From Octopus sinensis (taxonomy: Eukaryota), in contig NC_043008.1 of assembly GCF_006345805.1 (NCBI RefSeq), positions 48,236,001 through 48,300,000 of the forward strand: a DNA stretch of 64,000 bases, read 5' to 3'. The notes beneath the pieces are model-generated. The model was not told the DNA's origin. It worked only from the letters and a program-made list of their open reading frames with translations, and did not search any database. The position numbers were made by a program, and so were the translations under genes. Positions 19,781 to 62,607 of the stretch are shown here, piece after piece; the stretch's first letter is position 1; every line of letters begins with the position of its first letter.

Positions 19781-22633
19781 ATCATCATCATCATCATCAT
19801 CATCGTTTAGCGTCCGTTTTCCATGCTAGCATGGGTTGGATGGGTCAACTGGGGTCTGTGAAGCTGGAAGGCTTCGTCAGGCCCAGTCAGATCTGGCAGT
19901 GTTTCTACGGCTGGATGCCCTTCCTAACGCCAACCACTCCGCGAGTGTAGTGGGTGTTTTTTACGTGCCACCTGCACAGGTGCCAGACAGAGCTGGTGAA
20001 CGGCCACGAACGGATGGTGCTTTTACGTGTCACCCGCTCGGGGCCAGGCGATGCTGGCAACGGACACGAACGGATGGTGCTTTTACGTGCCACCGACACG
20101 GGGCCAGACAGAGCTGGCAACCGGCCACGAACGGACGGTGCTTTTACGTGTCACCGGCACGGGGGCCAGCCGAGGCTGGCAACGGATGCGAACGGATGGT
20201 GCTTTTACGTGCCACCGACACGGTTGCCAGACAGAGCTGGCAAACGGCCACGAACGGATGGTGCTTTTACGTGCCACCGACACGGGGCCAGACAGAGCTG
20301 GCCAACGGCCACGAACGGACGGTGCTTTTACGTGTCACCGGCACGGGGCCAGGCGAGGCTGGCAACGAACACGAACGGATGGTGCTTTTACGTGCCACCG
20401 ACACGGGGCCAGCCAGAGCTGGCAAACGGCCACAAGCGAATGGTGCTTTTACGTATCACCGGCACGGGTGCCAGACGAGGCTGACAGCGGACACGAACAG
20501 ATGGGTCACTTAACCCCTGCTTTCTGATATATGATTTGATTTTGATTGTTCTCACTGGTCTTGCCGGGTCTTCTCACGCACAGCATACTTCCATAGGTCT
20601 CGGTCTCTGGTCATTTCCTTGGTGAGACCTAGAGTTCGAAGGTCGTGCTTCACCACCTCGACCCAGGTTTTCCTGGGTCTACCTCTTCCACAGGTCCCCT
20701 CAACTGCCAGGGTGTGGCACTTTTTCACACACCTATCTTCATCCATTCTCACCACATGACCATACCAGCGCAATCGTCTCTCTTGCACACAACATCTGAT
20801 TCCTCTTAGGTCCAACTTTTCTCTCAAGGTACTTACACTCTGTCGACTATGAACACTGACATTACACATCCAACGGAGCATACTAGCTTCATTTCTCGCG
20901 AGCTTACGCATGTCCTCAGCAGTCACGGCCCATGTTCACTGCCATGTAGCATGGCTGTTCGTACACATGCATCATACAGTCTGCCTTTTACTCTGAGCGA
21001 GAGGCCTTTAGTCACCAACAGAGGTAAGAGCTCCCTAAACTTTGCCCAGGCTATTCTTACTCTAGCCGTTACACTTTCAGCACACCCACCCCCACTACTG
21101 ACTTGGTCACCAAGATAACGGAAGCTATCAACCACTTCTAGTTTTTCCCCTGGAAAGTGACGGAAGTTGTTTTCTGCAGATTTTCAGAGGTTAATGCTCC
21201 CGAGCATCTGCCACATACAAAAACCATCTTCCTAGTGAGCCTTCCTATGACATTGCTGCACCTCTTATGTGTCCATAGCTTACACTTGGTGCATCTTATA
21301 GAGTTTCTACCTACACCTTTTCTACAGATCGAGCAGGGCCATCTACCTGAAGGCGTTGTGATTTGTCTACCTTCCTACTTATTACGACTTTGGTTTTAGC
21401 TAGGTTGACTCTAAGGCCCTTCGATTCTAAACCATGCTTCCACACCTGAAACTTCTTCTCCAGTTCTGATAATGACTCAGCAATTAGAGCAAGGTCATCA
21501 GCATAGAGGAGCTCCCAGGGGCATCCTGTCTTGAATTCCTCCGTTATTGCCTGGAGGACTATGATAAATAGGAGGGGGCTGAGGACTGAGCCTTGGTGGA
21601 CCCCTACCTCTACCCGGAATTCTTCACTGTACTCATTTCCAACCCTCACCTTACTAGCAGCGTCCCTGTACATGGCTTGCACAGCTCTCACTAACCATTC
21701 TTCTATTCCTAGTTTCCTCATTGACCACCATATGAGGGATCGGGGGACCCTGTCGAAGGCTTTCTCCATGTCAACAAAAGCCAGGTACATGGCCTTATCT
21801 TTGGCTAGGTATTTCTCCTGCAGCTGCCTTACCAGGAATATAGCATCAGTGGTACTTTTCCCTGGCACGAAACCAAACTGCATCTCATCTAAACTAACTC
21901 TCTCTCTAATTAGTTGGCTTATGACCCTCTCTGTAACCTTCATCACCTGATCCAACAGCTTGATACCTCTGTAATTATTTGTATCTAGGGCATCACCTTT
22001 ACCTTTGTAGCAGTTGACTATTATGCTGCTACACCAGTCATGGGTATGACTCCTTCATGTATCACCTGATTAACTATACAGGTGACTAGGCTATAGCCGA
22101 CACTACCAGATATTTTGAGCATCTCTGCAGTGATACCTGATGGGCCTGGGGCTTTCCCTGTCTTCATGCTTCTAATTGCCTTAGCTACTAAGGAACTATC
22201 AACCCTGGTAGCTGGTCCCTCTGTTGGGTCAACGTTCGGCAGACTCTCTTTATCCCATTCATTTTCTTTATTCAGCAACCTTTCATAGTGGCATCTCCAA
22301 GCCTCTCTCTTTGCATCCTCGTTTAGCGCAAGTGAACCATCTTCCATGCGAACACACTTCTCTCCCACCACATCACAATTCTCTCTCACACACTGTCTTG
22401 CAACGCGAAACACCTCCAGTCTTTGGTCCTCACGGCGCAGAACATTGGCAAATTTTTTCTTATCTGCTTCCCCTCTGGCTAGATAGACCTGTCTCCTAGC
22501 TTCCCTTTTAGCAGTCTGATACAATTCCCTGCTACCACCATTCTTCCAGTGCTTCCAAGTCTGTCTCTTTTCTCTAATAGCCCTGTCTACGACACTGTTC
22601 CACCACTACGTTACCTTGGGACGAGAGGGGACT
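19781..22633 (-). mobile_element. 5'-truncated, frameshifted RTE-clade LINE with RT domain, 3' UTR and (GAT)n tail
   Basis: ORF fragments with KAPGPSGI, QFGF.PGKSTTDAIF, FVDMEKAFDRV, GVHQGSVLSPLLF, LLYADD, FRYLG, RLRWYGHV.RM and GRGRPRKTW. No APE domain seen. (CAT)n on the plus strand at 19781-19803. Confidence 0.95.
19955..20505 (-). repeat. About 9 copies of a ~61-bp tandem repeat in the RTE 3' UTR
   Basis: Recurrent GAACGGATGGTGCTTTTACGTG(C/T)CACCG(A/G)CACGGGGCCAG...GCTGGCAACGG. Confidence 0.95.
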
Positions 22634-25774: not shown

Positions 25775-26882
25775 GAGTCGCTGCGTGACGGTGTGCACCA
25801 AGCAAGAACAGATCAGTGACTGATTTCTCTGGTCGGGGAGGTGAGTCAGGGGCTGAAATGCATCGCTGGCTTTCAGTACAATAGGGTGATAGCGCTCTAC
25901 CGCGTAGAAGTGTGTGTGTGTGTGTGTGAGTGAACTGAAAATTTTTTAAATAGCTGGACCAGAGTGAAGCATGAAGAGGGAGCAGGGCCCCCTATCAATT
26001 TCCACCTTTGACGTGAAGATTCAACCGGCACAAGAGATGGCTCAGGTGAACCAACGAGTAACAGTCGATTAGGTGGCAGATTCTCTGCAAATTAGCCATG
26101 GTTCTACACACGAAATCATTCGCGACAAGCTTCGCCTGCATAAAGTCTGTGCAAGATGAGTAGCAAGAGAGCTTATGGAAGCGCATAAGGGGTCCGTCAA
26201 CGCTTACTCGACCGCTACGATGAAGGCGAAGCGATTTTTGGAAAGAAGCCACTGGAGATGAGATCTGGGTCCATCACTTTGAATCAGAATCAAAAGAAGA
26301 AAAAATAGTATGGATTGGAAACAGCCAGAATCGCCAGCATATATGAAACTGAACACTCAACCTTCAACAGAAAAAGTGATACTGTTTTGAGGGACGCAAA
26401 ATGGCCGGCACTGGGACATCACCTAGAAAAGGGGTCTGCAGTCACCGGTGTAGGCTGCGGTGAAATTCTGGCCAACAAAATGAAATCAGTAATTCGCACC
26501 GAACGCCGGGGTCTATTGTCGAAGCAAATGTTGTTGTTGCACGACACGGGTGCCCACACCTATTGAAATTTGGGTTTCGAGTTGCTGGAACAGCCTGCAT
26601 ACAGTCCGCATCTCGTCCTTTCGCCCAGCAACTCTTCGAACCACTCTAACCTCCTCCATGAGGTCATCGATTTATTACGGACAAAGACACGCAGGAAGCG
26701 GTGCAGAAATGGCTGCGTGACAAACTGAAAACCTCCTTTTTCCGATGGAATAAGCAATCTTGGGAACCCCTGAAAGAAGTGCACCGAAAAGCAAGGAGTC
26801 TCTGTCAAAAAATGATGAAACTGTTCAACTCCTGCTTTTGCTTTAATAAATTACAGAAACAAGCGTTGACTTACCCTCTTAG
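25775..26882 (+). mobile_element. Decayed mariner (Tc1/mariner) transposase pseudogene
   Basis: Fragments CTKQEQ.SV..FLW, LQISHGSTHEIIRDKL.LHKVCAR*VAREL (WVPREL-like), GDE.WVHHF, LLLHD and PAYSPHL (YSPDL-like). Multiple stops and frameshifts. Confidence 0.85.
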
Positions 26883-29499
26883 ATCAATCAATTTTATAAT
26901 TGCTAATTAGACTCCAAGACGTATTCGAAGGCTGAGGTGGAGAAAATCATTTCTAAGGCTCTGAATGTGTATAAATGTTGCAGGAGTTATTATTGAAGGG
27001 TTTTGTTTCAGTGCTGTTTACAAGAAAGGACCTCACCTCCATAAAATGATGCTTTGAGAAGTTGAAGGTAAACTGCCGCAATTGCATACAAATCAATCCA
27101 ATACAAATACGCAAAGCTCTCCTATCGACTGCATGTCCCTTCCTCTCACTCTCTCTCTAGAATTAATTAGTTTACTCTTAAGAGCCCCCCCCCCCCGCGG
27201 CCTCTAACAAAGCGCTGCTGCCCAGGTTAAGGGCCACAGGACATAATAGCCACTTCTAACAGCATCTGACCATTTTATCTGTTTAGTTGTCAGTCGGTCG
27301 ATGTTCTGAGAGTAACATAACTTCCACTTGGTGGTAATCCAACAATTTAAACGCATCAACTTGCGTCTCAAATCCAATTCTTTTCTCCCGAATTTGCTGA
27401 ACGTTTATAGGGTCCCCTGAACCCAGACTTAAAATTTTCTACAATAAACAGTTAAACGCCCGGTAATTCCATGCCAGGAATCTCCATGATCGTTCGACTT
27501 GCCAAAACTTCCTCAACCCTCTCTCATAAAAGCTGACGTAATTATGCCCCACAACCTGACCCCGTCACAGGTCAGGTGAAAAGGGGCATGCGCCATTGCA
27601 GTCACCTTTCGTCAGAATATTCCCAAGTCCTCCCTGGCCACCCGTCCAGCAGAATCTCAGCCAGAATCATCAGCAGATGTGACAACTAGTCACAGACCTT
27701 CAGCAATTCTTTGATTTTACAGTTTTACCATTTATGTTCTGTTGTAGAATATCCAAAGTTACTTTCTGAACACTGAAGGACTAATGACAATTTGCTCTAA
27801 TGTGGGGCTTAATTAGTGGCTGCCGGAACCTCCTGGGGACAATTCCAAAAAAGTTAGTGACAATGTTTTAGTTGACATTTTGAAGCGAAAACTCTTGGTT
27901 TTGTAGCACAAAGCGACAAATTTAAGGATAAATGGAATCATTCTAATGGACCCTGTTGTGTAGTCCTACAAGAATACGAAACAGAGAGAAAGAAGATGGA
28001 GTCGACTTGGGTAGGATTTGAACTTTGTTGCTACGAAGCTAGGTCACTAAATGCCACAACACTTTAGCATATTTGCCAGTTCAGTTGAATGTAATCAGCA
28101 AATTAATGGGGAAAAGGGGGTTTTTATCATCTCTTACGATCTGTAGCTAGAATATCAAATATGATGGACGCATCGCTATAAGATATAAACAGAACAAATA
28201 TAGAAAAATCGTTTGTTTTTGTTGTTTGTGAGAGAGTTGGTGGTTGGGGGGGGAGAATGTTTACATCAATGATAATAAAAGTGTCCCTCAAAAGGCCAGC
28301 GTTAAAGACCAGTGAGCGACGCACAGCAGTAAAAAGTTGATTGCTATCAGTCGAACGATCAGACATGCAATAAAATTAAATAAATAAATAATCACATGGG
28401 CAAAAAGAGTGAAAAGAATTTGCAGAACATCAAATATTTATTTGGTGCAGCAAGTCTTTTAATCAATGTCTGCTACTGAGACATGTTTAATGGAACTTAA
28501 AATGGATAAAAAAAAATAATAAAATAGCATCAGGGAAGGAAAATTCTTTGGTTATGAAATATCAAAACAAAAATATTCCAAATTGGAAATTTTGTAAAGA
28601 AATAAATAAATATATAAATTAAATTAAATTAAATTAAAAAAACATGAAATAAATTATTCTTTAAAGATGAAACTGTTGTAAAATATTCGAGTGGGGGGGA
28701 GTGTTAAATATTTGATGGTGGTGGTCGTGGTGGTGGAACATGGCGTGTAAATAATGATTTCTGTCTCTGTTATGATATCACAAGTTTATAATGAATGAGT
28801 AGAAATAATTGACTCATCCCAGTATATAACTGGTATTAACCCAGACAAATGAGAGAAACACTTCTCTGGTGAGATTTGAACTCCAAACATAAATGATCAG
28901 TCCTATCCCAAAATGCAACAGCAGACTCCCCACCCCAATGCAGTCCCAGATCAGTTCTGACCAAGCAGAACTATAAAGACATTCCAGCCACGACTATCAC
29001 CTCAGCTGTTGTTGTTCAGATACAATGTGTCCTAGATCGGGGATATTTAATATGTCCTTATCATTTTAAGATTGTAGGCTGCTATGTCTAACGAATCACA
29101 TAGAGCCCCACCTCCTTTGCCAAGGGCTGTATACCAGGGCAGAGGTTCAACATTCATCCATTGTTGTTTCCCCATGATTCTCAGGACTGATTTGAGGAAG
29201 ATTTGGCTGCTGTTTCTAACAGATCAAGTGATTGCTGTTGTTGCAGAGATGGATTCAGGAGCACAATGCATTATGGGAAGCACCAGAATGGAGACATGGC
29301 ACAGTGGTGGGCAGTGGTCAGATAAATGCCTCCAGAGACTGGTTCCGGGTCTTTTAGCTCTTTGCATCCAAATCGTGCAGAGACGTCAGCTTTACCTTTT
29401 CTCTCTTTGTTGCAGAACAATAAAGAACCCCCCCCCGCCCCCTCTCTCCAAACCAAACAGCTTGGCTGTGGGGGCAAGAAGCTTGATTCCCAGCAACAG

Positions 29500-30115: not shown

Positions 30116-32310
30116 GCATACAGGTATGAATACATATGTGAATCTATATATGAACATAGCATTGTGCCAACAAATTAAACCAGTTGTTAATCAGAAGTTA
30201 ATGCCTTCTTAATTAACGTAAGGAAAACAAAAATGTGATTAATAATACCTATGTGGAACTCAATGATTAATATTAATTTCAACTGATGTCAGCAAAAACA
30301 GGAGATAACTGAAGGCATGTTTCAGTCTTATAAGGAGTTCTTGCATGATTTCCCTTGGTAAGAAACCAATCAATATATTACAGGTACAAACTGTTGAGAG
30401 AACCGGAAGAATTCGGTCTTATTTCCTTTTGGAGCTGCACTGTGTATATTGATTGCTCTGTTCTTGGACAGTTCCAGAGACAGCAGTTTGTCTTGGAGAT
30501 AAGGTTGGATTTCTGAAGAAAAGAGTCAATGTGGATGAATGAATGGAGAGAGAAAAAGAGAGATCGAGATTGTATGTATGTATGTATATACGTACGGACA
30601 GACAGACAGACAGGGAGGGAGGGAAGAGCAGAGCTAAAAGAACAACAAAGAATAAATATCAATTTTCTCTTTATTTATGGAAAAAAACTGCTTGTCTTTT
30701 AAGTCTTTTGTTGTTGTTTTTGTCATATTTTTAAGCCTTTTCCTTCCCATTTGTAATTTTACTCAACATTTATGGTTTAAACTGTTTTATTCTCTTCTTT
30801 TGAAATGTCTTTTTCCTTGCAGAGGTTTTTTCCTCTTCTCTCGGAAGAAAACAAAAAGCATTTTTATCATAAGAAATTATTATGAAAGGCTAGATTTTTT
30901 TTTCTTTTTTTGTGGAGGGGGGTAGACATGCATCCACTGCTAGGATAATGTAATAGTAGTAATGGTGGTGGTGGTGGTGGTGGTGGTTCTACAGAGAACG
31001 GTAAATCTAGCAGCAATTCTTGTTGTCCTTTCATGTCTTCTTTTAGATTGTTTGTTGTTGTTGTTGTGACTCCAGCAGAACATGCATAGATATCATCTGC
31101 TGGATCGATTATATGAAAGAAGAAAAAAAAAAAAGAATGAGGAGAGGGGGGGGAGGGCAAATATAGATTTGGTATAATTGAAGGTATTTCTGACTTCTCG
31201 AAACACATCAAACTATTTGGTCCAATCAAAAAAGGTTTGGTCACTTATTGTTTAAAAAAAAATATATATATATAATTATATATAAATAAAAGAGAGATGG
31301 GATGGTGGTGGCCACCTCTGGAACATGAGTGTTAAATAGATGACCAACATGGCTGCTAAATAACAGATTTCAAAAACGACAAAGCAAGAAGGATATAATG
31401 TGGATCAAAGAAGAGATGGCATTTGTTGAACAACAAAACACTGTACACAGAATATTATAAAATAAATAAGAGTATTTTCCAGACAGTTCCACCAAAAGAA
31501 AAAAAGGGGGAAAAAAAAAAAGCTGTCCATTTTTGCCTCACTGAATCCAGAATAAAAAATATCAGGCTCTCCTCCAAGATGTCTCAGTTTGGTTTCTAAA
31601 CTTTTTGTTTGTTTTCTTCAACCTTTTGGATCAAGACGTCAAATCCATCATCGGATCAGATATTGTAGAAGTAATTGTACTTTAAAGTTAAATCATCACA
31701 CAGAGGCAGCTATATACATATGTATATATATATATATGCATATATATACATATATGTATGTATATATATATAGCTAACAGGCAAGTGTATGCATGAATGA
31801 ATCCACTAATGCATACATGTTTCAATTTACCTCACTAATTAATTAAAATACCCAATATGAATTATACATTCAATACCATTTGCCATAAACAAACCATGAC
31901 TAAACTGAAAGCAGGAATTCTGCTCCACGACAAAAGGACCCATCGTTAGTTTTGGAAAAACAAAATAATCATATTAATGATTAAGATGTGTTGATATAAA
32001 AACTACTTTTTTTCTGTTTCGGCAGTGAATAAGGACTGCAATCTTTCATTAATTCCACTCAAAGAAGACAAAACATTATTAAGATGGAATTAACAGCCAT
32101 AACGAACAAGAATTTATTAGAAACAACACAAATTAATTGACATCTTGCATTGGCCTTATCCCATAACTAATGTTTGTTTTGTTGATCTCCGAGTGGCGAA
32201 GAGCAACATTAACTTGGGTGGCATTTGAACACAGCAGTTAGAAGGACGAAACTAAATGCTGTGTTGCAAAAGAACACACCCCTCTCGATTTTTTATGCCA
32301 ACTCACCATT

Positions 32311-32347
<37 letters not shown>

Positions 32348-33587
32348 CTTCTAACAGAGGCACAAACTTTCTAATTTGGACGAGAGAAAAAACATCAACC
32401 CAAGTACATGACTGAAACTTATGAAGTCCAGAAACCTCAAAGTCAAACTAGTGAAATTGGAACTCCTAACATTAAAGAGAGACAGATGAAATATTAAGTC
32501 TGATTCCCAACAGACTCTGCAAGTCCACTGCCTGGAAACAGAATAAACAAAAAACAATTGGACTTGAAATGGTTTCATCACCAAAATAAATAATTCAGTT
32601 GTAAAGTGGGAGCACAACTGAGTTTTGATGTCAATGAGTCTCTAAGTAAATATTTATCATTTGGAGATTGATGTTTATAGAGTTGCTTTTCATTTGAAAA
32701 TAACAAAAATTATATATGAAGACATAAATTCAAAGCCTGGCCTGGGAATCAAACTCGAGAAATATCATTAAATAAAATGATCTGAAAACCAGCAGAAGAA
32801 TAACTTTTGGTTTCACATCCAAAACCTTTACTTTTGTTCAATGACTAATTATGTTATTGTCTTTGCCGCAATTGTACAGTTTTTGTCCTCAAAATAAAAT
32901 TTCATTAAGTGGATAATGAAATTTAAAAAATAAGGGAACCCTCACTGTTAATTAACTTGTTATGGAAGAGGTGACTAATGAAAGATTTTAACTTTCACCA
33001 ATGGAAGGGAGAGAACTCAAGAGTAAGATTTGTTAAATTGTTTCAAGGTCTTCAAAAAAAGCTAGAAATGACAGGGAAATTATAAAAATATAATGAAAAC
33101 CTTTTTGTTAATAAATTAAGTTGGGTATTTTTTTAAGACTTAAAAAGAAACCCTTTTTAATGGAGTCCTAAGAATTAATCCTATATTTTCAAATTAGTTG
33201 CAAAAATGGCGCCCATTCTACTTTTCTTCTCTCAGAATCAACTGAGACAACATCATCGATGAAGACGGAGAGAAGAAGCAGCAGCCGAGTTTGTAGAAGG
33301 TTTGGACCCTTCTGTAGAGAGAACGGTCAAGGAGCATCGACAAATAACACAAACATCACTAACAGATCAACAAAAACACTAACATCTAATACCACCACTA
33401 TTATTAAGATTATCATTATCATTATTATTAAGATTATCATTATCATTATTATTAAGATTATCATTATTATTAAGATTATCATTATTACACGCTTCTATTT
33501 GTGTAACCCCACACTGTATTGTCCTGTACAATCCCCAATGGTTTTTTTGGCTTTTTATTTTGCAAACCCATAGTTGTAAATAAAGAA

Positions 33588-33618
<31 letters not shown>

Positions 33619-33995
33619 CTAGACATAAAATAAGGGGAGACGAGAATTGCCAAATTCCAAGTGGCTGCGGATGTTGCAATGTTTGTGCGATTAACCATTT
33701 TAAATAGTTCCAACAAAGACTATAACCGAGTCGTTCATTCAAAACCGACTGCCCCATTACAGCACCAGCTCTGTCATTATCATATATTAGCATTACAGCA
33801 CTGTCATTAATTATTATATATTAGCATATTTAATTACTGCCTTTAATTTAAGCACAAAGAAATGTGGAGGAGTTCATTCAATCATCCTCAGCAGTTACTA
33901 TATTTTATAAAACCTAAAATGCTGGAAAGCAAAAATCACAACACTGCAAGAGTATTGTAGTTTGCTTGAAGCATTGTGGATTGTTTGTAAAGAAT

Positions 33996-34259
33996 AAAAT
34001 GTTTCAAATGCTACAACAATGCATTTATAACACAAACAATGGCCTACAATAAACTGTTGTAATTTAACCATCCATAGTCTGATATGATATTTCGGAATAC
34101 AAATTCCTTCCTCAGATATCCCTAGGAATTGATGGAGTCACTAGCAGTGAATTTGTATTCCGAAATATCATATCAGATTATGGATGGTTAAATTCCAACA
34201 GTTTATTGTAGGCCATTGTTTGTGTTATAAATGCATTGTTGTAGCATTTGAAACATTTT
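33996..34259. repeat. 111-bp inverted repeat (33996-34106 / 34149-34259, two mismatches) with 42-nt spacer
   Basis: Direct reverse-complement comparison. Confidence 0.95.
34081..34120 (-). ncRNA. Minimal type I hammerhead ribozyme
   Basis: GATAT-CTGAGGA-A-GGAAT-TTGT-ATTCC-GAAA-TA-TC^ATATC. 5-bp stem I, 5-bp stem II, palindromic ATAT stem III, AUC triplet. Confidence 0.8.
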
Positions 34260-35512
34260 TTTTTTCTTCACAACACTATGTTCAAACCTTTGCTTTCTTG
34301 GGCAGAATTCAAACTCAGAAGAGCTGAAAGAAGTGGCACAAAGTATTATGTTTGATGCTCCACTGATTCTACCAATTGAACAACTTTTATCCTATTGGTC
34401 TCTAAATTAGGTCCACAGTCAGTTACCTAAGGAGAGGAGACATACTGACACTTAGTACTCAACCAATATATTTATTCTATTGCCCCCTAAAGAATGAAAA
34501 GCAAAGGTGACCTCAACAAGATTGGAACTCTAAATGTGAAATGCCAGGATAAATAGCAGAAAGCATTTCATCTCTAACAACTCTGCCAGTCCAGTGCCAT
34601 AGGCACAGGGCCAGGCAGGTGGTTGTGAGAGTGAGGGGAGAGTCAAGTAATCAAGGCCAGGACTTAATTGATAATTTACACTAATTAACAATGTTGAAGA
34701 GTTATGTAGGGTTAACTCATAATCATTCAACTGATAAAAGATTAACGAACCAAGAACAAATATAACATAACAACAGTTAACCATTAGTCATACTGACACA
34801 TGACAGTGGAGTGTCCAAAGAAACGACAAGAATAGGCAGCAGACAGTTTGGAAGTTCCAAGACAGAAGAATCAAAGATGAAGAAATATTTACAACAATTT
34901 CATAGAGAACTCAAAGAATATTGATGGAAATAAGGAACGGAAAGAGTTGAGAGAACAGAGAACAAGCTCAGGAGCTGAGGTCGACAGAATATATTGACTG
35001 AAGACAATTCTAACCATAATAGTCGACCAAAGGAAAAACCATCACAGGAACCAAACTCACATAATGCTCTGTAATGCACCCACACGCAATATGTAGAAGC
35101 GGGTGGGTGTCAGAATGGTGCCAGAGACATACAGTTTTAGTCACAATTCTTCTACATTTCATGCCTTGAAAATCCAAACAGAAATGTTTGTATCTTTTTT
35201 TTTTAAACAGAAAAAAAGCTGGCGGATATCATTAATGACTCAATTTAAAAGGGAGCAGTCTATATATATATATATATATGAATTTATAAGTGTGTGTGTA
35301 TAATCATGTATGTATATACACACATATATACACACACATTTATATACACACGTGTGTGTGTGTGTATATATATGAACACATGCATATGTAAGCATGTATA
35401 CACACACACAATTATATTACAAAGAATAACCAAAGATATTTTGCTTCTTCTTCACTGTAATTCTTTAAAATTACTAGATTTGTGCAGTGAAAAGTTTTGA
35501 CTCTCACACAGA

Positions 35513-35549
<37 letters not shown>

Positions 35550-35924
35550 GCACGCACACGCACGCACACACACGCACACACACACACGCACAGACGAATC
35601 CTTTCCACCCATTCCTCTACTTCTTTGATATTTGCTTGCATGCAGAGTAACACTTTCTGAAAATGTTGTAAAGAAAGAAAGAAAGAAAATCACAAAGACA
35701 AAGCATTACTTGCGATATTTGAAATTTGGTAGTTTCAGGGTTTTTGCACTATTATACAAGTTGAGTTGAAGGAGTTGGAATTGTTGATGGCAACAGGCTT
35801 AGGGGGACAATCTACAAGGATGTCTTCTGGCTGAGGCAGCCAGAGAATATCGAAGAGGGGGGGGAGAAGCTACAAGGACTGTGGTGGTTTAACTGCAATG
35901 CAAAACATACCTGTTGCAAGTGAA

Positions 35925-35967
<43 letters not shown>

Positions 35968-36197
35968 CTCAAAAGGAAAAATTATTACAGAAGGGTGCAA
36001 AGAATGGAAGCAGAAATTCCAATATAAAATGTCTGCAGAAAAAGAAAATAAAATAAAAGTCAGATGTTTTTTTGTTTTTGTTTTTGTTCATTTGTGTAGC
36101 AAAGTCACAGGATTCGTTAAGTTAGTGTTTATGAGATTTCTCTTGTTGCATTTGTTTTGTTTTTAACATTTTGAGAATATATTGAAGGTGTGAGAGT

Positions 36198-36413
36198 TTA
36201 GACGTCCACACATTCTGGGCTGTCTTTTGGATGAACAAGGAGATGGTCAGCAGCTTGCTCTACATCCCAGTTGCATTTCAACAGAGCCTCTTTGCAGCGA
36301 TTCACATCAGCCAAGCCAGTACTTATCAGCTGCTTTAACTTGATATACTTTATGGCACTCTGTATGTTCCATTTGGTCTCTTCCAGGGCTTGCCGGCAAT
36401 CGACCTCAGAAAC
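36198..36413 (-). CDS. Ack-like: Terminal coding exon with tandem UBA-like domain of an ACK-family kinase (ACK1/TNK2 or Ack-like/PR2; orthology not resolved)
   Basis: Acceptor gttttgtag|GTT. Translates VSEVDCRQALEETKWNIQSAIKYIKLKQLISTGLADVNRCKEALLKCNWDVEQAADHLLVHPKDSPECVDV*, matching the ACK C-terminal pattern C..AL....W....A..Y.K..QL...GL.....C...L....W..EQA..HLL. Confidence 0.88.
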   Translation of the reverse strand, partial: VSEVDCRQALEETKWNIQSAIKYIKLKQLISTGLADVNRCKEALLKCNWDVEQAADHLLVHPKDSPECVDV

Positions 36414-38912: not shown

Positions 38913-41427
38913 GATATATATATATATATATATATGATGATATATATATATATATGCAGATATGGGTTGTGTGTGCATGTGTTGTCCTCCACAGTGTTTT
39001 CTCAGCTCCTCAATGCCTTCCCTACACTTTTCTGTTGTTTGTTCATTTCGGTTCCCATGGTGTGGATTGGATGAAGCTTGTTAAAGCAGGGTTCTTCATG
39101 TCTGAATGCCCTTTTCCCCCGTCATCATCCTCAGATTGAAAATGAAGAGAACATTAAATGATGACACGCGGAATAGTATTCACCCACACCCACATATATG
39201 TATGGCTATGCGTGCGTGTGTGTGTGTGTATCACATACAGGTTTGGGGCAGAACATCAGATGCAAAAACCTGACAAAGCAGGATTTCAAATGAGCAGGAA
39301 AAAAAAAAGAAATCAGAATATTGAACTCTTGAAAAGTGAAAACTCGGAATGATGAATGCCAAGACTTTGAACAATAAAAAGAAGTTTGAAATATTGGGGG
39401 GGGGGGGAACAGTTTTACATTTATTTCCAGTTTTAAAAGGGAATTCGTTTGAGAATTTTTTTTTGTGTGTCTGTGTCTGATTTTTTTTCAGTTTTTTATG
39501 AGGCTGCGTCAGAATAGCAGAGACAAGTTTGTACATTGGCCTTACAAAGGAACGGAAGCAAAGGCACACAACTATTCTTGGTCTTTTAAATTCTTCAGTT
39601 TGTTTGTATTTAAAGAAAAAAGCAGAATATTTATTAATGAGAGAATTGAGAAAGAGACATGGGTTAGCAATGGAAAGGGCATCCAAATGGAAAACAACAA
39701 TATGTCTAGCCAGGCTGACATGGAAAAAAAATAGATTTATAATCAACAATCAAAATTCTGCATTAAAAGGAAAATTTCCAAGTTCAAATCTCATCTCAAT
39801 ATATACATTAAAAAACAAATAAAAGAAATGGAAGGTAGTTCAAGTAAAACTCTAGGAAAATATTTAGGCTTCCAGTTTGTTAAAAAGCTACAATCTGTGG
39901 TAGCATAATCGTTTCTATATCTTGTTTGAGAGATAAAACTAGTTGCAGTTGAGTTTAAAACCAGAAAAGAAGACAGCAGAGAGTTTGGTGTCTCTCTTCA
40001 ATAAGATCCCCCTTGCCACACCCAAACCAACACTAAACAACTCTAACCGTTTTATTATATGTTTTTAACATCCATTCAGTTTTACTTAAACTAAAAGACA
40101 TATTTCTCCTGGAATGGTAAAATGTCATCAACAGCTAAAAATGCTGCTAAAAATGTCATTTGATAATGCAACAAAAATGGAACATGGAAACAATATTCTT
40201 TTTTTAAAAAAGACTGTAAATAAATATTTTGATTTGTGTATATTTATATCGATTTCAAAACATGCTCTAAGCAGAATTCAAACCATCTAAAGGACAATAT
40301 TGACAAAAGAATATTGTTATAAATGAAAGAGGTGTTAAGAAAAACAATAAAATAATACATTTAAAATTAAAAAAAAAAACATTACAAAATCAACAAAAAC
40401 TATTTTTACAGATTTTTTCTTTTTTTTTCACCTTCCACATTTCATGGCTCCACTAATTTCTAATATATTGATGGACTTGATCAGTATTTTAGTATTAATA
40501 ATATTGGTAGGTAACTAAACTATAGGTTAGAGACTAGAAATAGTATTTTAATAATAATCGTCCATCTATTTATCATCAAATTAAAACTTCTGTCTCTTGC
40601 TAACATCATTATTACTTTAATTGCATTTTATGTCTTCTCCTTTCAATTGTTTCCATTTCTTGCCTAGTGTCTTCCTGACACACAATACCATCATCAACAT
40701 CATCATCATTATTATTATTATTATTATTATTATCCAACCTACCTATCATCTGTATTTAATCTTCAACACAGAGAAACACAAACATTCCATTTCAATCAAA
40801 ACAACTTCTGACCCTTTCAAAGCCTAAAGTGTCCACACACAACCAAGTCTCTGACAAGTCTACAAACCTCGTTCCTCGTTTCATTCTCTTCCCTCAAACA
40901 ACAGGGTCCCTCCTCCTATCACCCATCCCTCCATCACTCTCCTATCTACTACATTGTTTTGTTGCTGTCAGAAACTAAAGCAGAACCTCTTACTACATGC
41001 CACATTGAGCTTCAGTCCTGCCAGTCAACACCCTGTATTACTACCAACCAGCATCACCACCCCGCTAGCACTTGAGCCACCACACTCTGTAAAGTGGATG
41101 GGATTGTGAAGGGACACCCAGCTGGAGAAACGATGCAAAACATGAAATACTCAAGCAAGACCTGATCCTCTGACACATTGGATCTTGTCAAAACATCCGA
41201 CCCGTGTCAGCATAGCAAGTGATGTAAAGCAATGAGGATATTCACATCACTGACAACATTCTCCCCAAATGAATTACTATGGAAATAACCCACTTTCACC
41301 AACACTAGAAAAAGATTTTACCAACTTGAAAAATCTATAATTTCTAATCACATCAGCTATACTGAAATGATAAGTTCAAAATAATATTGGTTTCAAATTC
41401 TGGCACAAGGACAGCAATTTTGGGTGG

Positions 41428-42195
41428 GTGATGAGGCCTGTGTGCAAACAGCCATGCTACATGGCAGCGATACATGGGTTGAGTGCTGAGGACATGTGTA
41501 GGCTTGCAAGGAATGAAGCTAGTATGCTCCACTGGATGTGTAATGTCAGTGTGCATACACGACAGAGTGTGAGTGCCCTGAGAGAAAAGTTGGGCATAAG
41601 AAGCATCAGATGTGTTGTGCAAGAGAGACGGCTGCACTGGTATGGTCATGTGTTACGTATGGATGATGACAGTTGTGTGAAGAAGTGTTACACCCTAACA
41701 ATGGAAGGAACCTGTAGAAGTAAACCCAGGAAGATGTGGAATGAGGTGGTGAAGCACGATCTTCAAACGATGGGCCTCACAGAGGCAATGACAAGCAACC
41801 GAGACCTCTGGAGATATGCTGTGCTTGAGAAGACCCATCAGGTCAAGTGATATCTTAGCCGTGCCCGATGTCAGTGTCACATAATTAGTCAGGCAATATG
41901 CTGTGCTTGAGAAGACAGGTTGAGTCAAGCGAAATTGTAGTCATAGCCAATGCTAGTGCCACATGATTGGCTCCCGTGCCAGTGCTACCCGATTGGCCCC
42001 CATGCCAGTGGCACATAAAAAGCACCCACTACACTCTCGGAGTGGTTGGCATTAGGAAGAAGGGCATCCAGCTTTAGAAACCTTGCCAGATCAGATTGGA
42101 GTCTGGCGCAGCCTCCTAGCATGCCAATCCTCAGTCAAACCATCCAACCCATGCCAGCATGGAAAGTGGACGTTAAACGATGATGATGATGATGA
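41428..42195 (+). mobile_element. 5'-truncated RTE LINE (C-terminus, 3' UTR, (GAT)n tail) inserted into a family C SINE
   Basis: ORF AEDMCRLARNEASMLHWMCNVSVH...RLHWYGHV is homologous to 20552-20926. SINE halves at 41385-41427 and 42196-42350. Confidence 0.9.
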
Positions 42196-58254: not shown

Positions 58255-59147
58255 GTATATTTACCTATAAATAGTTCATAGACGAGAATCGGATATTCTC
58301 CGTATAGAATACACTCAGTAGTGCTCAAGAGATTTAAACTTGAGTGGGTAGAGAAGTAAATGCAGGGACAGGAAAGTTGATATACAAAAAATATTGAATA
58401 CCGTTAATAGAAAAAAATGTATATTTGGTTACAGATACAAACAGGTCTGACTTACACAGAACAGAAATGATATCAAGAATTAAAGGGGTTGAATTAAATT
58501 GGATTTGTAACACTTTTCTGTAATTCTAACCCCTTTAATTCATCATATCATTTCTATTCTGTGTAACTTGGACTTTTTTGTATCTAACCAAATATACATT
58601 TTTTCTTTTAAATGTATTAAATATTCTTTGTATACTGACTTGCCTAACTTGCTTATCATTACATTTACTCATATATATAGATATATGTAGATATATACAT
58701 ATATCACATACATATATATACATACATACACACACATATCTATACATATATTAGTTAATATGTGTGTGTGTCTGTGCACACACACACACATATATATACA
58801 TACACAAACATAACTAGTGTGTGTGTGCAAACAATTTGAAATTCTACGTTCAGTTTCTCTGTTAAAAATCACTAAACCCAAAAGGTTTAAAGATCTCCAA
58901 AGCAATGGAAACGTTAAATAAACTCGTGTTTTAATATAAACCTTGTTCTTAAATTGAAACATAAAGATGTGAGAACCAAAGAACTTTTTAATACTTTTCC
59001 CTAACAAGCATAACAAAATAATTATAACTTGTGCTTTTTTTTGTTGTCGTTTTTAACAGAATCATTAACAATTAGAAAAGACTGGAAGAAGTGAGAAACT
59101 GATTAAAAGAAAAAAAATCTTCCAAAACCAAAGATTCTCTTGTTTAC

Positions 59148-61759
59148 CTATCTAAAGCAAATTCGAGCAGATCTTCATAGCTGACACTGTCGGAGGTCTT
59201 GTAGTTGGCAGACATTGGGGAGAGATCTTCGGAACTTTCATTATCAGAGTATTTCCACCTCGAAACATTCCCAGTTTTACACCAAAATGGGTCTTGATGG
59301 TTATAGAATCCCAACTGTTCTAAATTATACTGTACCACTTGTAAACGGTACCTCCTACGTGGGAAAGTGGAACACCCAGACTGTCCTGAAATCATGCTAG
59401 ACGCCTCTCTAGAAGAAGAGTCATGAAGGGGTGGGACTAGGGAATGAGTTGAAATGGGAGGAGATAGGGAGGTTGGTGGTGTTGGTGAAGCTGATGACGA
59501 CAATGCTGGTGACGTTGGAAATGGATGTGGCGATGGTGGAGGAGGAGGAGGGGGAGGAGGTGGGGCCGTTGTCGGCATGGGGCAGTAGTCCGTTTGGCAA
59601 GGAACAAACACATTGTCGTCGTCGTCATCATCATCAGCATCGTTCTCATCAAAGTCTATTGGCGGGGGTGGAGCCGGTGGGAGAGAAGGAATATCATGCA
59701 AACAGTTAATAAAGAGGGGCCGGGGTTTGGCTGGAGAGGTAGTGGTGGCGGTGGTGGTAGTGGTAGTAGTGGTCATCACAGTGGTTGCAGCAGAGCAAGA
59801 GGCAGAAGAGTGGACGGATACAGAAGTGGAAACTCTGGAGTAAGAAGAGTCGCTATGGCGCAATAGGGGGTACTTCCTGGCCCGTGGCTTGGCGTTGAGC
59901 AGTTCATCTGGCCTCAACGGCTTACGCGGTGGCAACTGTGGTGGGAAACATTTATCTAGAGCAGGCATGCTTTCACTAGAACTGCTGTAGGTGCGGGGCG
60001 GAACCACAGGCGTGCGTCGTGGCACGAGATGAGGAGGCATTGAATCAATGATGTCACTTTTGTAGCCCCGAGACAAACTGATGGCTGCATGCTGAGAAAT
60101 TGTTGTTGTAGAAGTAGTAGTAGAGGTAGCAGTACAAGTAACAACAACAGTTGGACTAGTAAACTGTAACCTAGGCAACGGAAGAGATGGGGGTTTCATA
60201 CCTTGTCCACGCCCTCCTCGAATAGGAATGGCACCGCCACGCAGCATTCGTAAAGGGTTTGTATCAACTTCTTCATCTTCACCATTTGCAGTTGGAACAA
60301 CTTTAGTTGGAATTCCTTGTGGTTCCCTTAAATTCCGGATATGAGAGTGATCCATACTCTCAGTGGACATAGCTCGTTGGTGATCCATTGAACGCCGAAT
60401 TCGGCTCTCTCGAGCTAACTTACTCATAATTTCTCGTGGTGAAGGTTCTGCGAATTCTTCATCGAAACTCATCTTAGGTGATGAAATGCCAAATCTTTCT
60501 GAGTGGCTATCAGATCTCCTATCATAACCTCCACCTAGCTTATCTCTTGATTCTGTCTCCAAATCCCGATCCTCAACAGATCTCTCAGAACTGGATGCTG
60601 GAGAAGACTCTTTACTAAAGGAAAACGAGTCAAGACTCAAAGAATGATGTCCGTTCTCTCTATCAACACTGTGTGCTCTCTCAACAACAGGTTCTGCTTT
60701 AGGAATAGCAGTAGGGGGTGGTGGTGGAGGGACATCCATTCTGGGTAATGGTTCCGACCGTTGTTGAGATTCGGATCGTTCTAATCTAGGTGGAGACTCT
60801 TTTCTAAAAGAATACTCAATCTTAGTTGGAGGGGGAATTTTGCTGGGGTGGGGGATACGAGAAGGGTGCTCAGATTTCAGAGGATATTCAATTTTGCTTT
60901 CCATTTTCGGGAAGTCTGTTTTGGGCAAAATCTCTGGTTTAACTGCAATCTCTGGTTTACTTTGAGACTCTGACTTGATGGAAGATTCAGTTTTAATAGG
61001 GTAGTCGAATTTCGGTTCACTTCTTGACAAATGATCAGTCCTAGGGGGAGTTTCAGGAAGAGGCGGCGCTTCTTTTGGTTGGTCTATTTGTGGAACAATA
61101 TCTGGTTTGGGAGGCAATTCCGGTTTGGTTACTTCTGGCTTTGTAATTGACTCGATGCGAGGGGTAGGCTCTACTCTGTGTTCTGGACGTGGTTTCGGTA
61201 TAGGTGGTGGCTCAATTTTAGACATAGCTGCCCGGGATTTGCTCAGTGGCTTTATGTCTGAGTCTTTTCTTGTAATTGTAGCAGTGGGAAGGGTAGCAGT
61301 AGAGGAAAATGAGCTGGATTCTGGTTCTGCTTTGTTTGGAGATAATTCAGTATTAATAGTTAGTTCTTGTGAGAGAGATTCTACAGCTGGAGATGAGGGA
61401 GAGCTCTCTTTCCCTGCACCTTTCATTACAAGTATATTGTAAGCTTCTTGAGACTCTGGTGGAAGATCATCATCGAGGTCGGCTTTCATTGCAATCTCTT
61501 CAGTGAATGTCTTTTTGCGCTCCTGTTTAGGACTCCGCTTCATAGATATCTTCAATTTTTGGATGAGCTTTGGAGAGTCTGAACTGGTTTCAGATTTTGG
61601 ACTCAGTTGGTCATCGTCCATGTTCATTTTATTGCACTGCATGGCAAACTCGTTTGCTAAAGCTATGGCATTGTTAATCATTTTCTCATCATGAGCAGAC
61701 ATAGGTTTGACTTTTGCTTGCTTCTTTCCTTCAGATTTAGGCTCCCGGGGGGGAGTTTC
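59148..61759 (-). CDS. Large internal Pro/Ser-rich coding exon of an ACK-family non-receptor tyrosine kinase (kinase/SH3/CRIB exons not seen in this window)
   Basis: 883-aa ORF in the track. Acceptor ttttctatttcag|GAA at 61759 (phase 0) and donor AG|GTAAAC at 59148 (phase 2); 2612 bp. Many PxxP motifs (PPPIPKPR, PELPPKP, PPQLPPRKP). Splices in frame to the downstream UBA exons. Confidence 0.9.
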
Positions 61760-62607
61760 CTGAAATAGAAAACACAAGGATACTAAGGTACACACACATG
61801 CTTACTACACAACACTAGCACTACTTTTGGGGGTTTTATCAGCCCACAATAATCCCACAACAATACCCACACTCTATTGATATTCAAACCATTATTCTCA
61901 TCAATATAAATTTGATAATTGGTTTCTCATTCCAAAATATTGATTTTCCTTTTATTTTTACCCAACTTTTAAATGTGAAAAATATTAGAGAAGCTTTCTT
62001 TAATAAAAGAAATTAAATTTAAATAATTAAAACAAATCAATTTTTCTAGATTTGTTTGTCAATTCACAGCAAAATTGTGTGAAGGAATTGGTAGGAATGA
62101 TTTTGCAAATAGAAGTGAATTTCAATTTGAGTTCACAGAGAATATTTGGTTCTTTAGTTTAACCAGCATGGCAAAGGCAATGGTGAAGCACTGTCCTTAT
62201 TGTAAGACTTCAATTCTCTGGTTTTACTTTTTTACATTTTTTTATGTCATCTTAATTTTTAAGAAATCCAAGACTATTCTATTGTTTTCGACAACTGAAA
62301 TGGAATTGTAAGGTGAGAAGGGATATTGAAGACATGCTGAAGAGGAAAGAAATTTACAAGAAATTATGCCAAAAGAAAGAAAAGGTAAAATTCAGATGTT
62401 TAAGAAGATTAATAGGTAAAAAAACAATTAGGTGAAGAAAAATGAAGATTAAAGAATGTGGATTAGAAAGATTGACCCATTAATGAGGTGTGTTAATCTT
62501 TGTCCAAGCCAAAAAGCTAGCATTTGCCAAAATTTTGAGACATAGAACTTCAAGTCTCATTTCTATGCAAGCAGTGAATGATTATTGGCAATAATATAAA
62601 CCAGTAA

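Follow-up and report, generated by a model that had tools for sequence, protein, structure and literature searches.

Does a hammerhead ribozyme that lies downstream of a kinase stop codon, folded against an antisense copy of part of itself, cut the transcript that carries it, and could RNA editing decide whether it does? The question arises from a stretch of Octopus sinensis DNA of 64,000 nt (hereafter the window), in which the original prediction placed an intact minimal hammerhead within a near-perfect 111-bp inverted repeat, and proposed that the inversion silences an otherwise transcript-cutting ribozyme whose activity might be switched by A-to-I editing. The analysis makes it very probable that the locus is the remnant of a head-to-head pLTR insertion of a Penelope-like element (PLE) in the likely 3′ UTR of the kinase gene, with a hairpin that is likely edited by ADAR and a hammerhead that is likely a silent passenger. 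The coordinates of the features are collected in Table 1.

The hammerhead was recovered at 34081–34120 on the minus strand, where it had been predicted, with all core positions present by descriptor. It contains CUGAGGA, a bulged A, a 5-bp stem II closed by G10.1–C11.1, GAAA, AUC and a 5-bp stem I. The descriptor matched nowhere else in the 64-kb window, and gave no match in 40 Markov-simulated windows. An Rfam search returned no hammerhead at the gathering level, and only generic hairpin families at E ≤ 10. In helix III just two bases separate A15.1 from U16.1, so that the 4-nt palindrome has no loop, and the intramolecular helix III required of an active monomeric hammerhead is lacking. A search of 264 kb, made up of the window and 200 kb upstream of it, found no hammerhead partner of the same family on the same strand. 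Two 40-mers cofolded into a non-hammerhead duplex, and a heterodimer with the motif of a second repeat family in an intron of the same gene (see below) was discarded on inspection, the stem I sequences being incompatible. In the available part of PMC4209133 a single PLE minimal hammerhead gave no cleavage in vitro, and dimers and multimers were weakly active. The absence of an intramolecular helix III and of a partner in 264 kb, together with this reported inactivity of monomers, speaks against an otherwise transcript-cutting ribozyme. Minimal motifs are not always dead, since according to the accessible text of PMC11167929 a PLE hammerhead of Anolis cleaved in vitro at 500 nM RNA with the protein of the element; the same text reports no cut ends for it in RNA-seq.

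The arms of the inverted repeat (33990–34106 and 34149–34265) are each 117 nt in length and 97% complementary, and are separated by a spacer of 42 nt. Four of the 117 positions are mismatched, two of them within the 111-bp core, which is thus as near-perfect as had been claimed. The minus-strand RNA of the hairpin has a predicted folding energy of −185 kcal/mol (z −29.8), which none of 200 shuffled sequences equalled. While the inverted repeat itself stood, the extent of the unit had to be revised: the whole unit spans 33946–34267, including an unpaired tail of ∼42 bp that had been left out. It is bounded by a 10-bp target-site duplication; a 10-mer of this kind was shared by 23 of ∼5000 random pairs of 35-nt windows from the same region. 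The right arm had been described as beginning within stem II and lacking CTGAGGA. The 5′ half of the ribozyme is indeed missing from it, but the arm does not simply start in stem II. Because 34142–34150 corresponds to the stretch that in the family immediately precedes the ribozyme on its 5′ side, the inverted copy has instead suffered an internal deletion of 33 bp, located after 34150 between GA microhomologies, with loss of the ribozyme 5′ half. The inverted arms of two other loci (L015 and L018) have junction-proximal losses too. With one direct and one inverted copy only, the locus does not have the head-to-tail tandem of a non-LTR retrozyme. The original prediction had missed that the head-to-head layout is the standard product of PLE insertion.

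Table 1. Features of the PLE insertion and of the kinase gene around it, in window coordinates
Feature	Position	Strand	Remarks
Last coding exon and stop codon of the tyrosine-kinase gene	36198..36413	-	UBA domain (PF00627, E 1.9e-11)
Likely 3′ UTR of the kinase gene, ∼5.5 kb	30680..36197	-	Continuity with the stop codon presumed
Whole PLE insertion, 322 bp	33946..34267	.	Truncated pLTR, tail and adjacent inverted pLTR, head to head
Target-site duplication, left copy	33936..33945	+	10 bp
Target-site duplication, right copy	34268..34277	+	10 bp
PLE tail, optional 3′ extension of ∼42 bp	33948..33989	-	On one copy only; from family alignment
Direct pLTR, 5′-truncated	33990..34142	-	33990–34106 is the downstream hairpin arm
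Inverted pLTR, lacking the tail	34142..34265	+	In the minus-strand RNA, 34149–34265 is the upstream (antisense) arm
Minimal type I hammerhead, core intact	34081..34120	-	Helix III a loopless 4-nt palindrome; predicted cut 34086/34085
A>G sites of the downstream arm, at least 11	34012, 34024, 34025, 34026, 34028, 34045, 34050, 34065, 34075, 34085, 34088	-	
A>G sites of the upstream arm, at least 4	34171, 34179, 34228, 34247	-	

The unit belongs to a repeat family that is dispersed through the genome. A genome search in which 40 of 1281 candidates were scored gave 47 matches, the best of the other copies being 85–90% identical to the window unit. Thirty loci chosen for their likeness to the window were examined, of which 28 are distinct with the window included (L005 and L026 duplicate L001 and L008). 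The core is intact by descriptor in 20 of the 28 direct copies; 16 carry the tail, and the other 12 end at the pLTR boundary. An inverted partner is present at nine of the 28 loci (the window, and eight of the 27 others, which are likewise head-to-head), and in eight of these nine the pairing stops at one shared boundary. An inverted match at L019 was dropped as a different element. The exact ribozyme core occurs 134 times in the genome, 67 times on each strand, compared with no occurrence of the control. Among 100 of these 134 cores there are five opposite-strand pairs within 500 bp; close opposite-strand hammerhead pairs are reported for PLEs in the available part of PMC4209133.

Longer copies encode a reverse transcriptase (RT) thumb and a GIY-YIG endonuclease upstream of the repeat, which identifies the repeat as the pLTR of an endonuclease-bearing PLE. 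At L047 a single frame matches both RVT_1 (36.4 bits, E 5.6e-9) and GIY-YIG (26.5 bits, E 7.8e-6) above the Pfam cut-off. L047 itself has no pLTR match; the same ORF is found just upstream of a window-type pLTR at L043–L046, L048 and L049, and at L043 and L046 an inverted pLTR lies on the far side of the ORF. Below the cut-off, L044 matches RVT_1 and GIY-YIG and L043 matches RVT_1 only. A Cys-rich stretch precedes the endonuclease, compatible with the Zn-finger-like linker described for the Neptune/Nematis group in the text available from PMC8557442. On the sequence evidence of ORF, pLTR layout, tail, target-site duplication and hammerhead, the window unit is classed as an EN+ PLE with a C-terminal endonuclease. 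Its head-to-head arrangement is a published PLE layout (PMC8557442 and PMC3846280, in the parts available).

The hairpin lies 2.08 kb downstream of the stop codon (36198–36200) on the same strand, in agreement with the ∼2.1 kb originally given. Exons with the catalytic motifs of a tyrosine kinase are found on this strand 17–45 kb beyond the window (motif search of 20 stretches), and by its architecture the gene may be Ack/TNK2-like. On the minus strand at 59144–61801 there is a proline-rich open frame of 885 codons with no Pfam match, which probably represents a large internal exon of this gene.

Eight of 24 listed sequencing runs were examined, of which two are genome-sized (DNA-like) and six are RNA-like. 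The latter have 46–92 million letters and come from five studies under three organism labels. None is on record as RNA, and their status is deduced from the small size of the assemblies and from where the cover ends. As was expected of a transcript over the site, the RNA-like assemblies include the hairpin together with its flanks, and extend over ∼30680–35914 in pieces broken at microsatellites; for X4 and X7 no contig is listed across most of 34365–35319. In the three RNA-like runs examined further downstream, which belong to three studies, the contigs end at 30681–30705, close to an AAUAAA on the minus strand (30675–30670), while a DNA-like run continues. Where the contigs stop hints weakly at the 3′ end of the transcript, and suggests that these small runs are RNA. 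Between 35915 and 36656 there is next to no cover in all four runs checked there, the DNA-like run included, and cover is also missing from 30151–30632 and 27500–28463. No contig joining the UTR region to the stop codon was found, and the ∼5.5-kb 3′ UTR, though likely, is for that reason a deduction; the PLE insert likely lies inside it. The insert is present under all three organism labels, which fits neutrality and also mild selection. Two further observations concern this region. At 32994 there is a 24-bp indel within the likely UTR, at which organism labels B and C differ from the assembly. The upstream arm contains an AAUAAA of its own (34202–34207, minus strand), which arose from a single inserted base that most family copies do not have. 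The duplex buries this hexamer, and the RNA-like cover runs on beyond it.

Within the arms the RNA-like contigs differ from the assembly in a consistent manner. At 15 listed sites T is replaced by C on the plus strand, that is A by G in the minus-strand RNA, the changes being seen in five of the six RNA-like runs and in four studies, with ten of the sites recurring in two or more studies. For the sixth run (X12) no arm edits are listed, and the contigs listed for it go no further than the arms. In an X17 contig anchored in unique flanking sequence eight of 35 arm adenosines are changed, compared with none of 112 in the flank (p 5e-6). The 5′ neighbour of the changed adenosine is U at 11 of the 15 sites (22 of 87 in the background) and is never G (p 2e-5); ADAR enzymes prefer a 5′ U or A. 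The DNA-like runs, which do not come from the same individuals, have 0 to 1% change at the 13 sites they cover, 34026 and 34228 being without this control. The sole T>C change listed outside the arms, at 32860, is found under two other organism labels only and has the look of a species difference. Two of the changed sites, 34085 and 34088, correspond to A1.1 and A16.2 inside the ribozyme. Both come from one X2 contig (depth 17.4), which is also one A short in the GAAA core, at 34090; it is possibly a ribozyme-dead allele whose bulge shifts the editing. The A-to-I editing anticipated for the arms gains support from sites with an ADAR-type context, judged against unmatched DNA, and the changes were likely made by ADAR on the hairpin. 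The available part of PMC5625713 describes Penelope as heavily edited in lizard, and octopus as among the highest hyper-editors.

The arms also contain an A:C mismatch (34077 with 34178). Such a mismatch is a typical target of ADAR. Editing there would make the arms identical at this position, and would therefore be invisible in the contigs.

The masking of the ribozyme was quantified as a barrier, defined as the predicted cost of pairing stems I and II while the core stays open. In the unedited hairpin this is 35.4 kcal/mol, falling to 31.5 kcal/mol with all 15 sites as G and to 25.2 kcal/mol if they are made unpairable. In a nascent RNA that ends at the ribozyme it is 26.8 kcal/mol. Without the antisense arm only 3.3–3.5 kcal/mol remains, a residual cost due to competition for stem I by a local hairpin. 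Since removal of the arm lowers the barrier from 35 to ∼3.4 kcal/mol, masking by the antisense arm is real, and the folding computation agrees with the earlier view that the 111-bp duplex and the ribozyme fold exclude each other. A barrier as low as 9.5 kcal/mol is reached if the observed sites and all ten adenosines opposite the ribozyme are unpairable; only one of those ten is listed as changed. In the folding model, editing as observed does not lift the masking, and the 25–32 kcal/mol that it leaves argues against the editing-sensitive cleavage switch that had been proposed. The hammerhead is likely inactive in the mRNA, since it depends on a dimer partner and the duplex ties up its 3′ half.

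The assemblies were also inspected around the cut site. The upstream and downstream flanks have depths of 67.3 and 69 in X1, 46.9 and 64.9 in X2, 59.1 and 66.7 in X12, and 33.5 and 36.6 in X17. In X4 and X7 no upstream-flank contig is listed, and the next contigs upstream have ∼0.4–0.5 of the downstream depth. A step in depth across the cut site was rejected as evidence of cleavage, as contig depth cannot rank the parts of a gene. The only contig with at least 31 letters on either side of the cut site is the X2 contig without one core base, and because of that missing base it is no proof that an intact core stays uncut. An X17 contig whose core is intact spans the cut site, reaching only ∼20 letters upstream of it.

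These data bear on several readings of the locus. If ADAR loosened the duplex, the hammerhead could be freed and the mRNA would lose its poly(A) tail; with helix III supplied by a protein or a second RNA, this would be a natural editing-gated self-cleaving mRNA. It would account for an intact core in the assembly within RNA-like contigs that carry A>G changes, one of which (34171, on the antisense strand opposite stem I) recurs in three studies, and the barrier of 9.5 kcal/mol indicates how far complete loss of pairing by the opposing adenosines could go. We consider it most improbable, given the barrier left by the observed edits, the single opposing adenosine listed as changed, and a monomer that cannot form helix III and has no partner within the 264 kb searched. 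Moreover, changes at A1.1 and A16.2 would weaken the ribozyme, the X2 contig suggests that a dead allele is tolerated, and the intact core is nothing special, because 20 of the 28 direct copies are equally intact. It is also very unlikely that the A>G changes are alleles or letters of other family copies, and that the site lies outside the kinase mRNA. The unmatched DNA runs, the mapping of family copies at 90% likeness and the guessed RNA status of the runs leave some room for this, but the eight same-type changes of the X17 contig with a unique flank are all in the arm, the same sites turn up in different studies and under two organism labels, the neighbour bias is that of ADAR, and the DNA-like runs have next to no change at the sites they cover.

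Two other readings can coexist with the main one. The ribozyme might be able to cut with host or PLE proteins, such that this sense insertion survived within an mRNA only because the antisense arm locks it. The fall in the barrier on removal of the arm is in keeping with such a filter, as are the in vitro cleavage of a PLE hammerhead with its protein (PMC11167929, in the part available) and the exclusion of vertebrate non-LTR retrozymes from exons and introns (bioRxiv 10.64898/2026.07.22.740005, as far as its accessible text goes). The minimal hammerhead pair of a second family in the same gene is also within inverted repeats. Yet no selection need be invoked, because head-to-head pairs are the default PLE product, and the ribozyme would still require a partner; we regard the filter as unlikely. 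Alternatively the hairpin might have been co-opted, kept for mRNA stability, localisation or small-RNA production with the ribozyme irrelevant. Measured against the family yardstick over 99 columns, the arms have nine shared substitutions and only two private ones, a diagnostic 21-mer occurs exactly in the two window arms only, and the insert occurs under all three organism labels. However, many of the shared letters are subfamily traits, because L052, L016 and L022 have several of them, and the head-to-head copy L015 (C16:32973796-32974103) has the same pattern, with seven shared derived letters and none private over 99 columns. Homogenisation of the arms by selection is for these reasons unsupported. 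Descent from an edited RNA template was likewise rejected, only four of the nine shared changes being A>G. Co-option, too, has a low probability.

The preferred reading is accordingly that of a PLE remnant, whose history may be pictured as follows. One PLE insertion would have made both arms as a head-to-head pLTR pair, the inverted copy losing 33 bp during that event or later. The kinase mRNA, presumably continuous from the stop codon, likely reads through the insert, which would fold as a long hairpin and be edited by ADAR. The hammerhead would be silent for two independent reasons, the need for a dimer partner and the pairing of its 3′ half in the duplex, and the insert would be a passenger tolerated in the mRNA, having perhaps the effects that any edited UTR hairpin has.

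Other repeats were noted in and around the gene. An intron between kinase-domain exons (L055:1788-2513, on C12) contains an unrelated second repeat family with nested inverted repeats. Two intact minimal hammerheads are present there (∼1840–1885 on the minus strand and 2070–2115 on the plus strand) together with a partial third copy, and the family is probably another PLE family. The presence of this second pair in the same gene is a further sign that the layout is ordinary. By eye, broken reading frames of LINE-type reverse transcriptase occur at 20552–22605 (minus) and 41374–41850 (plus), and the sequence at 26000–26820 resembles a decayed transposase, presumably mariner-type.

The literature search found neither a natural editing-gated hammerhead nor PLE hammerheads in cephalopods, most subscription papers lying outside its scope. 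The nearest related report, in the part available, is of an engineered trans-acting ribozyme (PMC3923133). What the locus offers is a clear example of how an mRNA acquires an ADAR substrate ready-made from a PLE insertion, and of a sense-strand ribozyme motif that sits harmlessly in a transcript. It raises the question of whether unmasked sense-strand PLE hammerheads are depleted from genes across the genome. Were the switch true, this would be a natural editing-controlled self-cleaving mRNA, and the other head-to-head PLE palindromes in the genome would form a class of such switches.

The locus is a combination of known kinds, namely a palindrome of PLE pLTRs that contains a minimal hammerhead, and an edited inverted repeat in a UTR, for which the inverted Alus of 3′ UTRs are the familiar ADAR-edited example. 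The comparisons that follow are with the available parts of the reports cited. The motif agrees with the minimal PLE hammerheads of PMC4209133 in being type I without helix III, with palindromic 15.2/16.2 positions, a bulge before stem II, G10.1–C11.1 and a short helix I, and those motifs, too, are found mostly in solitary truncated copies and in pairs that lie close together on opposite strands. It differs in its stem II of 5 bp, compared with 7–8 bp in the Schistosoma motifs, in that half of one of the two ribozymes is deleted, and in that the unit is likely exonic and edited. With the head-to-head pLTR insertions of PMC3846280, PMC8557442 and PMC11167929 it shares an adjacent inverted truncated copy at the 5′ end, a palindromic junction, an optional tail on one copy and a duplication of ∼10 bp, although no ORF is left here and the tail is ∼42 bp rather than 30–40 bp. 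The edited palindromic repeats of PMC5625713 (lizard Penelope and frog Harbinger) are similarly long, near-perfect and self-folding, with clustered A>G changes, whereas the window repeat has in addition a ribozyme motif in its sense strand. The non-LTR retrozymes (PMC7229834 and bioRxiv 10.64898/2026.07.22.740005) likewise have a type I hammerhead and a PLE connection, but are arranged as head-to-tail tandems, in contrast to the head-to-head pair and minimal motif of the window. Finally, the discontinuous hammerhead of Clec2 (PMC6155905) is also placed in an mRNA 3′ UTR; it is a type III ribozyme of several mammals, described as self-cleaving, while that of the window is minimal, dimer-dependent, masked and derived from a transposon.
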